In this document: piece after piece, positions 15,704 to 29,250 of the stretch
How the letters are laid out: each line of letters opens with the position of its first letter
Numbering within the stretch: position 1 is the first letter of the stretch
From: a virus
Virus record (IMG/VR): IMGVR_UViG_3300045988_133018
DNA: 36,270 bases
Strand: one strand, 5' to 3'
Position numbers and translations under genes: made by a program
The notes under the pieces: generated by a model
The model's database searches: none
Told to the model about the DNA's origin: nothing
The model's input: the letters and a program-made list of their open reading frames with translations, nothing else

Positions 15704-15829
15704 TTATTTTTTCCTTTCAGCAATAATTGACTTTAAATAAGAACTTAGCGACATATCTCTTTCTTTTGCCTCTTTTTGTAATTGCTCTTTGAGTTCACAA
15801 CTAACTTTAAAGATTATTGTATCTTTCAT
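15704..15829 (-). CDS. Ribbon-helix-helix (CopG-like) protein, 41 aa
   Basis: Hand translation gives MKDTIIFKVSCELKEQLQKEAKERDMSLSSYLKSIIAERKK. GGAGG RBS. It is the first gene after a consensus-like promoter. Confidence 0.5.
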   Translation of the reverse strand: MKDTIIFKVSCELKEQLQKEAKERDMSLSSYLKSIIAERKK

Positions 15830-15851
15830 TTTCTACCTCCTTACACTTAAA

Positions 15852-15880
15852 ATTATAACATATTTTATATACTTTTGCAA
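15852..15880 (-). promoter_or_regulatory. SigA-type promoter, TTGCAA-17 nt-TATAAT
   Basis: Minus-strand reading is TTGCAAaagtatataaaatatgtTATAAT, with the spacer counted as 17 nt. Confidence 0.6.
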
Positions 15881-15904
15881 TACTTTTTTTATACTGTTTA
15901 TATA

Positions 15905-16087
15905 CTAATTTTGTGGATACCTAACTACGCAATTTTCATTTTGCCTTATTACTACTTCTTTATTTTCCAAACTCTTAACATAGTCTGTTATCCATTTTTT
16001 ATACTCTTCTATATTTCTTTTATCTTCATATCCTAGCATTGAACCATTAACTAAATTTGCTAGTCCTATTAAATATTTATCCTTCAT
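15905..16087 (-). CDS. Hypothetical protein (60 aa)
   Basis: Minus-strand ORF in the early region. Confidence 0.5.
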   Translation of the reverse strand: MKDKYLIGLANLVNGSMLGYEDKRNIEEYKKWITDYVKSLENKEVVIRQNENCVVRYPQN

Positions 16088-16275
16088 TTATTATTTACTC
16101 CTCTCTATAAGGTTTATGCGAAATATTATTATAAAATTCGTTTAATAGCAATTCGTAACATTCTTTTTCGTGCAATGTGTTTAAAATGCTTGTAAAAAAG
16201 CTCAATATAATTAAAAAATAGCCAGCATATAACATTATAACTATTAATTTTAGTCAGTTACTCATGTTTATTAAT

Positions 16276-16455
16276 TTATCTTTTAACAATTTCCCAATTT
16301 TCGGGATGCTTAAATTTTTTTAATTGAATATTTGCTTGCTGTTTATCAAATTTTGTTGCGTCAAGTATATTTCGTACATAATGATGATAATTTAATGCTT
16401 TATATTTCTTTAAAAAAGCTCCATTTATTTTATGCCTTAATATATATTTTACCAT
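16276..16455 (-). CDS. Hypothetical protein (59 aa)
   Basis: GGGAG RBS followed by an ATG at 16455, 4 nt after the upstream stop. One residue under the track cutoff. Confidence 0.4.
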   Translation of the reverse strand: MVKYILRHKINGAFLKKYKALNYHHYVRNILDATKFDKQQANIQLKKFKHPENWEIVKR

Positions 16456-16458
16456 TTT

Positions 16459-16716
16459 TTACTCCCTATAATCGTTTAAAATTCTTTTTACATCTTCATC
16501 AATAATTTGCTTTTCTAAATATCTGCTAATAAAATTAGATAATATTTTAATATCTTCAACTAAATACTTGTTTTTGTCAATCAATCTAATATTTGCTTTA
16601 ACCATTTGACTATTTTCTCTTTTCATCTCTCTAAAAAAATCTTTTATTTTTTTATCATTATTTTTTAAGTTTATTGTGCTGGAACCATTTATCAGTTCTA
16701 ATATTTCTTTTTCCAT
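16459..16716 (-). CDS. Hypothetical protein (85 aa)
   Basis: Minus-strand ORF downstream of the XRE gene. Confidence 0.55.
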   Translation of the reverse strand: MEKEILELINGSSTINLKNNDKKIKDFFREMKRENSQMVKANIRLIDKNKYLVEDIKILSNFISRYLEKQIIDEDVKRILNDYRE

Positions 16717-16778
16717 ATTTTATATTAAAAGCTTTATTCCATTTTTTTGTTTTAGCTTTATTCCCCTTTCTTAATAAA

Positions 16779-16994
16779 TTATTCTTTTGTTTCACATTCT
16801 TTTAGTATCCTTGACAATTCTCTATCTTGGTTGTCATTTCTTATATAAAGAAATTTTGATAAAATTTTATAGGGCATTTGTCTTTTTCCATACTCGTAAT
16901 TTCTATATGCTCTCAGTGATATATTTAATAAATCAGCCATTTGCTGTTGTGTGTATCTATTTTCAATCCTATACTGTTTCAATTTACTAACCAT
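16779..16994 (-). CDS. XRE-family helix-turn-helix transcriptional regulator
   Basis: The sequence LKQYRIENRYTQQQMADLLNISLRAYRNYEYGKR is a classic HTH_XRE pattern. Confidence 0.75.
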   Translation of the reverse strand: MVSKLKQYRIENRYTQQQMADLLNISLRAYRNYEYGKRQMPYKILSKFLYIRNDNQDRELSRILKECETKE

Positions 16995-16997
16995 AAA

Positions 16998-17192
16998 TTA
17001 CAAATCCTTTTCTATTTTGCATATTAATAAAATATTGCTAAACAATATTATAAATAAAATTAATATATTCTGCCTATAATCATTTATTGTGACTATTTCC
17101 TTCATTAAATTTGGCAAATTTAGTATTACTATTAAATCAATGATAGATAGCATTAAGTATCTCACCCATTTTTTTAGTCTTATTTTTTTCAT
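16998..17192 (-). CDS. Small membrane protein (64 aa)
   Basis: Two hydrophobic segments (YLMLSIIDLIVILNL and ILILFIILFSNILLI). Confidence 0.5.
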   Translation of the reverse strand: MKKIRLKKWVRYLMLSIIDLIVILNLPNLMKEIVTINDYRQNILILFIILFSNILLICKIEKDL

Positions 17193-17194
17193 TT

Positions 17195-17404
17195 TTATAT
17201 CCTCCTATATTCAAATTCGTACCCTAAATTATATTCCGTTATAATTCCATATTCTTCTAGTTCCTTAATTAATTTTTTTATGTCTTTATGGTATTTTTGA
17301 CTCAACTTATAATGTCTTTCTTCCCACCTGTCAATCATCTCAAGGTAAAAGTCTTTTTCAGCTAAATCATTCAATTCTTGTTTTATCTTTTCTATTTCAT
17401 TCAT
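17195..17404 (-). CDS. Hypothetical protein (69 aa), first early gene
   Basis: AGGAGGAG RBS. Lies directly downstream of a promoter. Confidence 0.6.
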   Translation of the reverse strand: MNEIEKIKQELNDLAEKDFYLEMIDRWEERHYKLSQKYHKDIKKLIKELEEYGIITEYNLGYEFEYRRI

Positions 17405-17426
17405 TTTATCTCCTCCTTACAATACT

Positions 17427-17455
17427 ATATTAACTCGTTTTGAGTAACTTGTCAA
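17427..17455 (-). promoter_or_regulatory. SigA-type promoter, TTGACA-17 nt-TAATAT
   Basis: Minus-strand reading is TTGACAagttactcaaaacgagtTAATAT, with the spacer counted as 17 nt. Confidence 0.55.
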
Positions 17456-17577
17456 CAAAAAAATAAAGAAAATTGCCTGAAAATGAAAACAAAAATAGGA
17501 GTAGGCAATTTCCCTTAATCACTAGGGGTTTTCTAGTGTCAAGTTAATTATAACATAATTATTATTAAAAATCAAAT

Positions 17578-17654
17578 TGGAGGGCAGAATGAGATTTGAA
17601 CTCATGAATACAAATTTTGCAGATTTGCCTCTTAAACCACTTGAGTATCTGCCC
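17578..17654 (-). tRNA. tRNA-Cys (anticodon GCA), 77 nt with encoded CCA
   Basis: The reverse complement folds as a cloverleaf. Acceptor GGGCAGA/TCTGCCC. D stem CTC/GAG. Anticodon stem CAAAT/ATTTG with loop CTGCAAA. T arm ATGAG-TTCAAAT-CTCAT. Discriminator U73, a tRNA-Cys identity element, then CCA. Confidence 0.9.
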
Positions 17655-17676
17655 ATAAAGAAGAAATTAATCTTCT

Positions 17677-26376: not shown

Positions 26377-27960
26377 CTAACCTCCAAATCCTGTTTGCAA
26401 ATTCTTTTGTCTTGCAATTCTTTGTTGCGCTTCAAACAATGTTCCCTCTTCAACTTCTGCTTTAACTACAAAATTTCCATCAAAAGTTGCATTGCTTGAT
26501 AATATTTGGCTAACGCTTCCAGCAGTACCACTAAATGCCATTTTACCAGTTTCCATATTGACTGCTTGTTTCATTCTATCATAAATTTCATCATTCATTT
26601 TATCAATGCTATCTAATGCTTTACCAGTATCTGTTTCAATACCTACTGCTATACCTTGTGGCAAATATTTACCAACTTGGTCACGCATAAGCGTTGATGG
26701 GCTATGTATTCCAAAGAATGATTTTATTCCATTTAGCATTGAAGAGCAAACATTTTTAATAGCCTTTTTAACAAAACTTCCCATTGAAGAGAAACCATTT
26801 ATAATACCTTGAATTATATTTTTTCCAATTCCAGACCATCCGCCGCTTTTAAAGGTATTTATTATTTGGCCTATTATTTTAGGAATATTTTTTAGCAAAT
26901 TTGGTATTGCTTGCCCTAATCCTTTTATTAATCCTGTTATTATGCTTTTACCTATTGATAAAAATTTACTTAATGTAAAGAAATTTATAATTGCCATTAT
27001 TATTGTTGGTAAATTTTTTAATATATCAGGAATTGATTTTATTAATCCTTCAATTAAACCTAAAATAATTTTAATTCCAAGCATTAAAAATTTATCAAAA
27101 TTTTCATTGAATATTTCCATTATTTTAATGATAACTTTCACTATTTGTGGCACTAAGTCAGGCAATGCTTCAGCTATTCCTTCCATTAGTGCAAATAATA
27201 TTTGAACTCCAGCCTCTAAAATTGTTGGTAAATTATCAATTATTAATTGAACAATACTCATTATTACTTGTATTATTACTGGTATTATTTGTGGCAAATA
27301 TTGTATTATACCATTTAATAATGATTGTAATATTTGTGTTCCAGTTGTTATCAAAGTAGGTAATGCACTAACTATTGCTTGCATTAAACCATTTATAATA
27401 TTTTGACCTGCTTCTATTATTTCTGGTAAATGTTCTAGCAATATTTCTCCTAATTTTGGTATTAGTTCTCCGATACCTTCAATAGCAATTAAAATTCTAG
27501 GTAATAAATTTTCAAACATTGTTTCTACACTGTCTACAAACTCGCCCATTACACCTTCAAAATCAACGTGGTCTCTTGCTATTGCTGTAACTAAATTATC
27601 CCATGATGCTTTTGCCATATTAGTTGAACCTTCGATTGTTGTTGAAGCCTCTTTAGCAGAAGTGCCTAATAAGACTTGTGCATCTTTAAAGCTTAATGTC
27701 CCATTTTTCATTTTTTCCATTGCTTCTTCGTATGAAATCCCCATATTTTCAGCAATTTTTGAAAGGTCTTCTTGAGTTAAAGACATATTTTTTAATTTTT
27801 CTTTTAATTCATCAGCAGAATATCCAGAAATGTCCATGTTTTTTTGAATTACATGAATTGCTTCAGCAATGTCTGCAAAATTACTTACATCATATTCTAT
27901 GCCGCTTAATTTTGTTGCGTCTTCAAGAAGCCTTTCCATTTCTTTTTTTGTACCACCGTA
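26377..27960 (-). CDS. Tail tape measure protein, exon 2 (527 aa)
   Basis: The reading frame is open from TAC at 27960 (YGGTKKEMERLL...). The MNTR residues of the track ORF come from a TTG inside intron sequence. A long hydrophobic-repeat central region is typical of tape measure proteins. Confidence 0.75.
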   Translation of the reverse strand, partial: YGGTKKEMERLLEDATKLSGIEYDVSNFADIAEAIHVIQKNMDISGYSADELKEKLKNMSLTQEDLSKIAENMGISYEEAMEKMKNGTLSFKDAQVLLGTSAKEASTTIEGSTNMAKASWDNLVTAIARDHVDFEGVMGEFVDSVETMFENLLPRILIAIEGIGELIPKLGEILLEHLPEIIEAGQNIINGLMQAIVSALPTLITTGTQILQSLLNGIIQYLPQIIPVIIQVIMSIVQLIIDNLPTILEAGVQILFALMEGIAEALPDLVPQIVKVIIKIMEIFNENFDKFLMLGIKIILGLIEGLIKSIPDILKNLPTIIMAIINFFTLSKFLSIGKSIITGLIKGLGQAIPNLLKNIPKIIGQIINTFKSGGWSGIGKNIIQGIINGFSSMGSFVKKAIKNVCSSMLNGIKSFFGIHSPSTLMRDQVGKYLPQGIAVGIETDTGKALDSIDKMNDEIYDRMKQAVNMETGKMAFSGTAGSVSQILSSNATFDGNFVVKAEVEEGTLFEAQQRIARQKNLQTGFGG

Positions 27961-28755
27961 CCTTGTATTCAACAGAGTTCGTTAGGCTCTGCCCGTTCTC
28001 TTATGAACTGCTATATATTTCTATATAGAGTAGACTATCTCTTCATCTCTTTTGAGAGCCTCGCACTTCCACTCACTTGAGTGTACTTCCTTTCGGAATA
28101 GTCGTTACACTTTTTTAGATTATTTCATATAAATAAATTTATAATTTCTCGTTTTTCCTCTTTTTCCAAATGTTCCTTTTTTTTAACATTTGTGAAATGT
28201 TAGAAATATTACAATTAAAATATTTTGCAACATCTTTTATTCTATTAAATATTAATTCTTCACCATTTATATTTATTACTTTTATTTTCTCACTTCTTAC
28301 ACCAAAAGTATTAAATCTTGAATTTTGTTCCGAATAAGTAGCCCATCTTAAATTAGAAATATCATTATTTAATCTGTTCCCATCTATATGGTCTATTGTG
28401 GGTTTACCTTCCAAATTAGGTATAAAATTACTTGCTATTAATCTATGCAATGTATATTTCTTTGATTTATTATTTTTCCATAAATCTATTTGATAATAGC
28501 CACTATCTTTATTAATTGATGGGCTTAATATTTTTTTAGTAATATTATTTTTTATTTCTCCTTTTTTATTAATAGAATAATTTTCATTTTCTTTTAATAT
28601 TTTCCATTCCATTTTACCGCCTCGTTATATCTAATTTAATTTTATCATAAATATAACAAAGTGTCAATAATCTAAACTTAGCACGGTATTGTCTTCAACT
28701 TTGTTTGTTAAGAGTTCCACCGTTTTCACGAGGTTTTAATTGAGCTATTTTGTTA
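27961..28755 (-). mobile_element. Group I intron (about 795 nt) interrupting the tape measure gene and carrying an HNH homing endonuclease ORF
   Basis: P1 pairs exon AAUUGGGU with intron GCUCAAUU, giving U.G at the 5' splice site. The intron ends in G at 27961. GNRA hairpins TTCC-GAAA-GGAA and CTATATA-GAAA-TATATAG. Long-range pairings AGGCTCT/AGAGCCT and CCTCGT/ACGAGG. Exon ligation is in frame. Confidence 0.75.
28139..28612 (-). CDS. Intron-encoded HNH homing endonuclease
   Basis: DHIDGNRLNNDISNLRWATYSEQN core. Flanked by 140-180 nt of structured, ORF-free sequence inside the split tape measure gene. Confidence 0.8.
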   Translation of the reverse strand: MEWKILKENENYSINKKGEIKNNITKKILSPSINKDSGYYQIDLWKNNKSKKYTLHRLIASNFIPNLEGKPTIDHIDGNRLNNDISNLRWATYSEQNSRFNTFGVRSEKIKVININGEELIFNRIKDVAKYFNCNISNISQMLKKRNIWKKRKNEKL

Positions 28756-29250
28756 ACCCAATTTAAGGTTATCTAACATAGTATAATTTTGTTTTGCAAA
28801 TCCTTGATAAGCATTTTGTATCATCTCCATTGATGTACCCATTTTATTAGCATTATCTGCCATATCAATTATTGTTCTATTTGCAATATCTGCTGCTTTA
28901 TCAGTATCTCCACCTAATGATTGCAACAAACTTGCACTAAATGAAGTAACTGTATTCATATATTCATTTGCACCAATTTGTGCAGTTTTATAAGCTTTGG
29001 CAGCATAACCTTGTAATTTTTGTGAACTTTCTTTAAATAAAGTGTCAACTCCACCTACAAGTTGCTCATATTCAGCATAATTACTTACAGAACTTTTTAA
29101 CAACGCTCCAAGCCCAGTACCAATTGCTGCTATTGAAGCACCTACTCCAACCGCTACGCCTTTAGCAATTCCACCTATTTTATTTAAACCACTTTGGAAT
29201 CCTTTTGTATCTAATTTGGTATCGTATGTTAACGAACCCGCTATTGCCAT
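28756..29250 (-). CDS. Tail tape measure protein, exon 1 (165 aa)
   Basis: Ends ...YTMLDNLKLG, followed immediately by a TAA that belongs to the intron. Joining to exon 2 gives LKLG-YGGTKKEMERLL. Confidence 0.75.

Follow-up and report, generated by a model that had tools for sequence, protein, structure and literature searches.

What divides the tape measure gene of an uncultured phage into two reading frames with a homing-endonuclease gene between them? The locus lies in a viral DNA stretch of 36,270 nucleotides (nt), IMG/VR record IMGVR_UViG_3300045988_133018, the whole of which is called the window here; all coordinates below refer to its minus strand, on which every gene of the region is encoded. 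We give a probability of about 0.93 to the reading that positions 27961 to 28755 are a mobile subgroup IA group I intron, which carries an HNH gene and splits the tape measure gene at the junction LKLG|YGGT. Anatomy, homology, covariation and a mobility signature directly support this reading. A first-pass annotation of the locus had already made the same proposal in its essentials, and the proposal is sustained by intron-less homologs, by introns at the same site in other phages, by covariation and by a match of the core to the Rfam model.

Two open reading frames (ORFs) flank the endonuclease gene, both present as first listed. One of them, of 165 amino acids (aa; 28753..29250), has the C-terminus ..YTMLDNLKLG (..QNYTMLDNLKLG), and its TAA stop is formed by intron bases 1-3. 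The other, of 531 aa (26377..27972), opens at a TTG codon with the N-terminus MNTR-YGGTKKEMERLL; because the TTG at 27972 lies inside the intron, this start is an artefact of ORF listing. When T28756 is joined to T27960, 795 nt drop out and the reading frame continues into a 692-aa product, in which the junction GGT|TAC encodes LKLG-YGGT, both as the first-pass annotation had it and as in the intron-less homologs. Two tape measure profiles match the spliced protein in a single stretch over the junction of residues 165/166, phrog_58 with an E-value of 1e-80 (residues 16-653) and phrog_6900 with an E-value of 6.6e-76 (residues 16-202). Intron-less tape measure genes from Lactococcus phage 63301, Streptococcus phage Javan630 and Ruminococcus phage NatCom_2329 read uninterrupted through ..YTMLDNLKLGYGGTKEEM.. 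(..YTMLDNLKLGYGGTKEEMQRLL..) and are colinear with the spliced protein; alignment with such continuous homologs locates the insertion point at LKLG|YGG.

Searches of GenBank phages with blastn recovered both intron-less and intron-bearing relatives of the tape measure gene. The layout of the window, with an N-terminal tape measure ORF, an endonuclease ORF and a C-terminal ORF, recurs in Lactococcus phages r1t, proPhi7, 28201, 50901, 62501 and C41431, and the same split is found in the streptococcal prophages Javan520 and Javan271. In every relative checked, the gene is interrupted after the Gly codon of LKLG and resumes at the Tyr codon of YGG. The same junction is occupied by an intron in nine distinct IMG/VR loci (given L numbers here), and in others that duplicate the named phages or the window. 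Over the 1230 nt compared, the IMG/VR locus L033 (IMGVR_UViG_3300045988_118293) and the window share 99.76% identity. Three same-site introns, in L010 (244 nt), Javan271 (298 nt) and L014 (299 nt), have no ORF at all, and they show that P6a is where the ORF has been inserted.

The intron of the window can be drawn with the helices of a group I ribozyme (Table 1). P7 is separated from the 3' strand of P3 by the hairpins P7.1 and P7.2, the hallmark of subgroup IA, and P2 is absent. At the 5' end, the internal guide sequence GCUCAAUU pairs with exon AAUUGGGU (28756..28763) to form P1, the core of which is exon AUUGGGU with guide GCUCAAU, and this pairing sets a U.G wobble at the 5' splice site, as had been read from the sequence initially. 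The 3' splice site is marked by a terminal G (omega-G, G27961), also recognized at the outset, and a final G is common to all same-site relatives. An 11-base-pair P6a helix closes the 568-nt loop that holds the ORF, and its sequence varies among relatives while the pairing stays.

Table 1. Positions of the tape measure exons, the intron and its parts (all in window coordinates), with pairing across the 22 aligned introns where given
Feature	Position	Strand	Details	Pairing across introns
Exon 1, tape measure gene	28756..29250	-	165 codons, ends ..LKLG; 5' splice-site U = U28756	
Group I intron, subgroup IA	27961..28755	-	795 nt, UAA.. to ..AAGG; omega-G = 27961	
Internal guide sequence GCUCAAUU (P1 3' strand)	28738..28745	-	intron positions 11-18	
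P3 5' strand CCUCGUG	28727..28733	-	partner 28059..28066	P3: 99.4% paired; compensatory change in 4/7 pairs
P4 (ACGGUG / UACCGU)	28683..28723	-	encloses P5 (28692..28713)	100% paired; compensatory change in 4/6 pairs
P6 5' strand GCU	28680..28682	-		P6: 100% paired; compensatory change in 2/3 pairs
P6a 5' strand UUUAGAUUAUU	28666..28676	-	exact complement AAUAAUCUAAA at 28114..28124	P6a: compensatory change in 6/8 pairs
Sigma-70-type promoter-like site TTGACA-17-TAAAAT, TG extension	28639..28667	-	inside P6a loop, upstream of HNH gene	
HNH homing-endonuclease ORF	28139..28612	-	157 aa as read; 163 aa ending 28120 with one A removed	
A8 run	28177..28184	-	one extra A relative to L033 and L026 (A7)	
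P6a 3' strand AAUAAUCUAAA	28114..28124	-		
P6 3' strand AGU	28109..28111	-		
P7 5' strand GACUAU	28098..28103	-		P7: 100% paired, invariant; uninformative
P7.1 UCC-GAAA-GGA	28088..28097	-		two base pairs testable, one covaries
P7.2 CACUC-AAGU-GAGUG	28070..28083	-		compensatory change in 5/5 pairs
P3 3' strand GUGCGAGG	28059..28066	-		
P8	28044..28058	-		
J8/7 and P7 3' strand AAGAGAUAGUC	28033..28043	-	matches Rfam consensus AAGAuAUAGUC	
P9 (GAAA loop)	28011..28028	-		compensatory change in 2/7 pairs
P9.1	27995..28008	-		invariant; uninformative
P9.2	27971..27993	-		compensatory change in 7/7 pairs
Exon 2, tape measure gene	26377..27960	-	opens UAC GGU GGU (YGG); 527 codons and stop	

This architecture was examined in an alignment (A1, 353 columns) of 22 introns with their ORF loops excised, 15 from the same site and 7 from other genes, on which a structure comprising P1, P3, P4, P5, P6, P6a, P7 (as a pseudoknot), P7.1, P7.2, P9, P9.1 and P9.2 was tested. 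Standard pairs fill 97.6% of the cells, against 85.5% in shuffled alignments, and when partners were slid by 1-3 columns as a control only 31-44% remained paired. Compensatory change is seen in 38 of the 68 pairs, and none of 500 shuffles reached the observed values. RNAalifold, which cannot draw pseudoknots, independently recovers P3, P4, P5, P6, P6a, P7.2, P8, P9, P9.1 and P9.2. With its ORF deleted, the window intron folds at -72.3 kcal/mol, compared with -48.8 +/- 4.75 for shuffled versions (z = -4.94).

The most telling helix is P1, the exon strand of which is coding sequence. All seven of its positions are paired in 15/15 same-site introns, the U.G is invariant, and two pairs show compensatory change, each of them at a synonymous exon position: a Leu codon change from CUG to UUG in window-type introns is matched by G to A in the guide sequence, and a change from CUG to CUA in L019 is matched by C to U. 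Observations of this kind bear on a quite different account of the locus, according to which the two tape measure ORFs are naturally separate genes, a free-standing HNH gene has landed between them and RNA splicing does not occur. In GenBank records, the relatives indeed appear as an HNH gene with a coding sequence labelled 'tape measure' or 'minor tail' on either side. That account is contradicted by the approximately 220 nt of non-coding sequence around the ORF, which form a covarying group I fold, and it is opposed by the covariation of the guide sequence with the exon, by the interruption of the gene even by ORF-less versions and by the uninterrupted course of intron-less homologs through the site; we consider it barely conceivable. 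Readings as a group II intron, an intein or a split gene were also entertained and are excluded by the group I core together with the stop codon at the first intron bases.

Most of the individual helices that the first-pass annotation had picked out find a place in this structure. Its hairpins UUCC-GAAA-GGAA, CACUC-AAGU-GAGUG and CUAUAUA-GAAA-UAUAUAG are P7.1, P7.2 and P9, respectively, and its ACGGU/ACCGU pairing is P4; compensatory changes across relatives back P7.2, P9 and P4, and one of the two testable pairs of P7.1 covaries. A 7-base-pair AGGCUCU/AGAGCCU pairing fared less well: it can be formed in the window, but across relatives only 55.8% of cells are paired and covariation is not in excess, and its strands run into P8, P9.2 and the 3' strand of P3; it is therefore a chance match. 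As for the proposed CCUCGU/ACGAGG helix, the complementarity exists, but it is GUGCGAGG that is conserved and covaries as the partner of CCUCGUG, and the helix they form is P3. The 11-base-pair P6a helix, the internal promoter and a frameshift in the endonuclease gene were features absent from that annotation. A separate observation concerns the opening bases of exon 2 (27953-27960, UACGGUGG), which are nearly identical to the 5' strand of P4 (28716-28723, AACGGUGG), so that folding of the single sequence pairs exon 2 with the 3' strand of P4. C41431 and L014, which have a different P4, do not share this resemblance, and it is thus probably a coincidence.

The gene within the P6a loop encodes an HNH protein that matches Pfam HNH_3 with an E-value of 2.9e-12 (residues 54-96) and falls in PHROG 59. 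Its closest solved structure is that of I-HmuI (PDB 1U3E, E-value 3e-15), with which DHIDGN..NN..NLRW aligns, and the HNH motif is intact. As read, the frame ends in KKRNIWKKRKNEKL (..QMLKKRNIWKKRKNEKL) and lacks the conserved C-terminal DNA-binding tail GT.G.RG.TR.Y.F.Y, which is found in L026, L025 and r1t ORF41. Deletion of a single A from the A8 run restores this tail, and along its entire length the frame-corrected protein then shares 53% identity with r1t ORF41; L033 and L026 have the intact tail GTFGKRGKTRNYKF with A7. The additional A is either a frameshift mutation of recent date or an error of assembly in a homopolymer, and in the former case the endonuclease of the window may be inactive.

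Upstream of this gene stands the best promoter-like site of the region (TTGACA-17-TGATAAAAT, 11/12 matches). A matching site occupies the same position in most of the ORF-bearing introns checked, among them r1t, proPhi7, Javan520, L017, L019, L021, L025, L026 and C41431, the last of which keeps it though its intron ORF is unrelated and belongs to a different family; a scan of L022 and L031 found no such site. Match quality and positional conservation are the grounds on which we call it a putative promoter, one that would serve the endonuclease gene.

The motif ACGAGG (28620..28625) lies beside the endonuclease start, and the window shares its 6-base-pair complementarity to CCUCGU with L025 and L026. 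Introns of the r1t type have ACGUGG instead, at a place upstream of the ribosome-binding site that does not overlap it. The first-pass annotation had supposed that this pairing, which involves the ribosome-binding site, could repress endonuclease translation. Comparison of relatives offers no support for the idea, since the P3 5' strand does not vary and the motif is a different one in r1t-type relatives, and it remains a guess. It is tempting, if doubtful, to extend the idea to a two-promoter switch in which ACGAGG mimics the 3' strand of P3 and separates endonuclease from tape measure expression. In late read-through pre-mRNA, the ACGAGG/CCUCGU pairing would compete with the folding of the ribozyme and mask the ribosome-binding site, and in transcripts from the intron promoter, which would start downstream of CCUCGU, the ribosome-binding site would stay free. 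Such a switch would resemble the control reportedly published for I-TevI in the td intron of phage T4.

Several observations weigh against a functional, mobile intron at this site. In a 1.1-kb search with the Rfam group I model RF00028, the window copy scores 28.5 bits (E-value 4.9e-5, over 28011..28155, the P7/J8-7/P9 core), below the gathering cut-off of 50 bits, which is a threshold of the model and no biological property. When the whole 36-kb window was searched, the intron was reported neither at the gathering threshold, at which only a tRNA appeared, nor by E-value; the model search proposed with the first-pass annotation thus yielded a sub-threshold core match in the short search and nothing in the long one. 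L010, the closest ORF-less relative, gave no Rfam match at an E-value of 0.001 or less. P5 of the window has a single A.A mismatch where relatives have C-G, and P7 and P9.1 never vary, so that covariation provides no test of them. The extra A shifts the frame of the last approximately 18 codons of the HNH gene, promoter-like sites are no commoner in this AT-rich region than in shuffled sequence (8 vs 9.0), and the splicing of the window copy itself is something that we infer.

In the window copy, the 568-nt ORF insert in P6a and the missing P2 break the Rfam model. Within the match, AUGAAGAGAUAGUCUACUCU is placed with high posterior probability on the consensus UgAAGAUAUAGUCuaaucU, the J8/7-P7 sequence that forms the guanosine-binding site, and P9 with its GAAA loop follows on the J8/7-P7-P9 consensus of the family. 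The ORF-less same-site intron of Javan271 scores 43.3 bits, and that of L014 scores 71.8 bits and exceeds the cut-off. It could still be held that the window carries a decayed group I descendant that no longer splices, with tape measure function either lost, in which case the sequence would derive from a defective prophage or a dead contig, or supplied as two polypeptides. The sub-threshold score and the P5 mismatch fit such decay, and the frameshifted endonuclease gene indicates that some decay is tolerated at the locus. Yet 67 of the 68 consensus pairs are standard in the window copy, P1, the U.G pair, the terminal G and the P7/J8-7 core are all intact, the exon frame is exact, and exon 2 has neither a start codon nor a ribosome-binding site of its own outside the intron. 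Loss of the endonuclease with retention of the ribozyme is moreover a normal stage in the life cycle of introns, as the ORF-less L010, L014 and Javan271 introns illustrate. Decay of the ribozyme is for these reasons quite improbable, and a splicing-competent intron remains the far better reading.

Indirect evidence for mobility comes from a comparison of the window with L025 and L026. The introns are 92.7-93.5% identical, whereas the flanks (300 nt on each side) are only 52-59% identical, and flank identity is raised only within approximately 50-100 nt of the junctions. Such a contrast is what one expects where an intron has moved from one tape measure gene to another that has diverged from it.

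How, then, might the element work? The splicing steps of group I introns follow an established chemistry. In the late pre-mRNA, exon AUUGGGU would pair with guide GCUCAAU to form P1, and the P3-P9 core would assemble around the guanosine-binding P7 helix. A free guanosine bound at P7 would attack after U28756, the terminal G27961 would then replace it at P7, and ligation of the exons would create the message for one 692-aa tape measure protein. An endonuclease expressed from its own promoter would nick intron-less tape measure alleles of co-infecting phages, and repair of the nicked allele would copy the intron in, completing its homing.

The ribozyme core is not confined to tape measure genes. 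A P7-P9 core pattern was found in 27 IMG/VR loci, 15 of which continue with TAYGGNGG and so represent the same tape measure site, and 12 of which lie in other genes. In L009, L011, L013, L015, L020, L023/L029 and L027, the core (P3-P9.2, with the short P7.1 of the window type) occurs without an ORF outside tape measure genes, where it is combined with a P1 of its own and an extra P2 hairpin; several of these copies, e.g. L009 and L023, have near-identical P5 and P8 hairpins (CCUAAACGUAAAGxCGUAGG). In a megablast comparison, approximately 110-150 nt of the intron core (window positions 27980-28114) matched, at 80-82% identity, Twort/K-like Staphylococcus myophages and the UvsX-like recombinase gene of a Bacillus phage. 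These matches suggest that the core family is widespread in introns of Firmicute phages. When genome contigs were scanned with the pattern, matches came only from two Clostridia metagenome-assembled genomes, and a megablast comparison of 24 kb of the window with GenBank phages found no close relative, its matches being limited to the intron core and a short part of the tape measure gene.

In some relatives the introns are paired: the LKLG|YGG intron is preceded by another group I intron, different from it, and the 22 nt that separate the two form a micro-exon, GUUAGAUAACUUAAAACUGGGU. This arrangement is found in Javan271 (L004, 1600-2945), in L014 (3764-4413) and in L025, just upstream of the same-site intron. 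In Javan271 the HNH gene resides in the upstream intron and the same-site intron is ORF-less; the upstream intron of L014 scores 32.4 bits on Rfam. No second, upstream intron is present in the window. Elsewhere in the window, a tRNA-Cys (GCA) gene (17578-17654, minus strand) is found in a stretch of approximately 1.9 kb (15724-17676) without an ORF of at least 90 aa.

For annotation, the consequence is that two 'tape measure' ORFs and a TTG start represent one gene of 692 codons, and predictions of tail length should accordingly use the spliced product. The same split-gene annotation stands in the GenBank records of r1t, the P335 phages and the Javan prophages. LKLG|YGG emerges as a recurrent homing site across phages of Lactococcus, Streptococcus and uncultured Firmicutes of low guanine-cytosine (GC) content, and the ribozyme core recurs in other phage genes as well, neither of which changes what is known of group I introns. 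The finding is real and ordinary in kind, since r1t and many further phages have related introns at this very codon junction.

The closest known systems are r1t and its P335 and streptococcal relatives (proPhi7, 28201, 50901, 62501, C41431, Javan520 and Javan271), in which the insertion point, LKLG|YGG, is identical. Their introns have a homologous core with the same helices, an ORF that likewise lies in the P6a loop and is preceded by the same promoter-like site and, in r1t, the HNH protein whose 53% identity to the frame-corrected window protein was given above. The r1t same-site intron has been in GenBank since 1996, and a later paper, which quotes van Sinderen et al. 1996, refers to the element as a group I-like intron (PMC4177764). 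Differences are nonetheless plain. The window intron, at 795 nt, is shorter than its counterparts of 919-928 nt; its P7.1 is a minimal UCC-GAAA-GGA hairpin in place of an extension of approximately 55 nt, its P1 loop is 5 nt shorter, and its HNH protein lacks an internal segment of approximately 16-23 aa in addition to being frameshifted at its end. By its short P7.1 and shorter endonuclease, the window copy is a compact variant. It resides in a phage unrelated to the r1t group, with 28% GC and no close relative among GenBank phages.

Tape measure introns had been presumed uncommon in the first-pass annotation, a premise that fails in view of the r1t, Bacillus cereus-group prophage and ICP1 cases. 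In B. cereus-group prophages, IA1 and IA2 introns interrupt tape measure genes at three sites, termed TMP-IVS1, TMP-IVS2 and TMP-IVS3 (Tourasse and Kolsto 2008, PMC2504315); only some of them carry HNH genes, the guide sequence adapts to the site, and one gene may be interrupted at several sites (PMC2504315). By description, these introns resemble that of the window in being of type IA and in residing in a Firmicute phage tape measure gene, but they occupy other host genes and sites. In Vibrio phage ICP1, three introns with HNH-3 endonuclease genes divide the tape measure gene into four exons (Barth et al. 2023, PMC10448857), and splicing of this gene has been demonstrated by RNA sequencing and reverse-transcription PCR by the same authors, who called the tape measure gene 'frequently interrupted' (PMC10448857). 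Again judged by description, ICP1 and the window share a tape measure gene split by introns with HNH_3-type genes, the host of ICP1 being Gram-negative. Finally, the DNA polymerase intron of Bacillus phage SPO1 is likewise of IA type and encodes the HNH nicking endonuclease I-HmuI; its host gene differs from that of the window, and only the N-terminal 95 residues of the window HNH protein and I-HmuI can be aligned.

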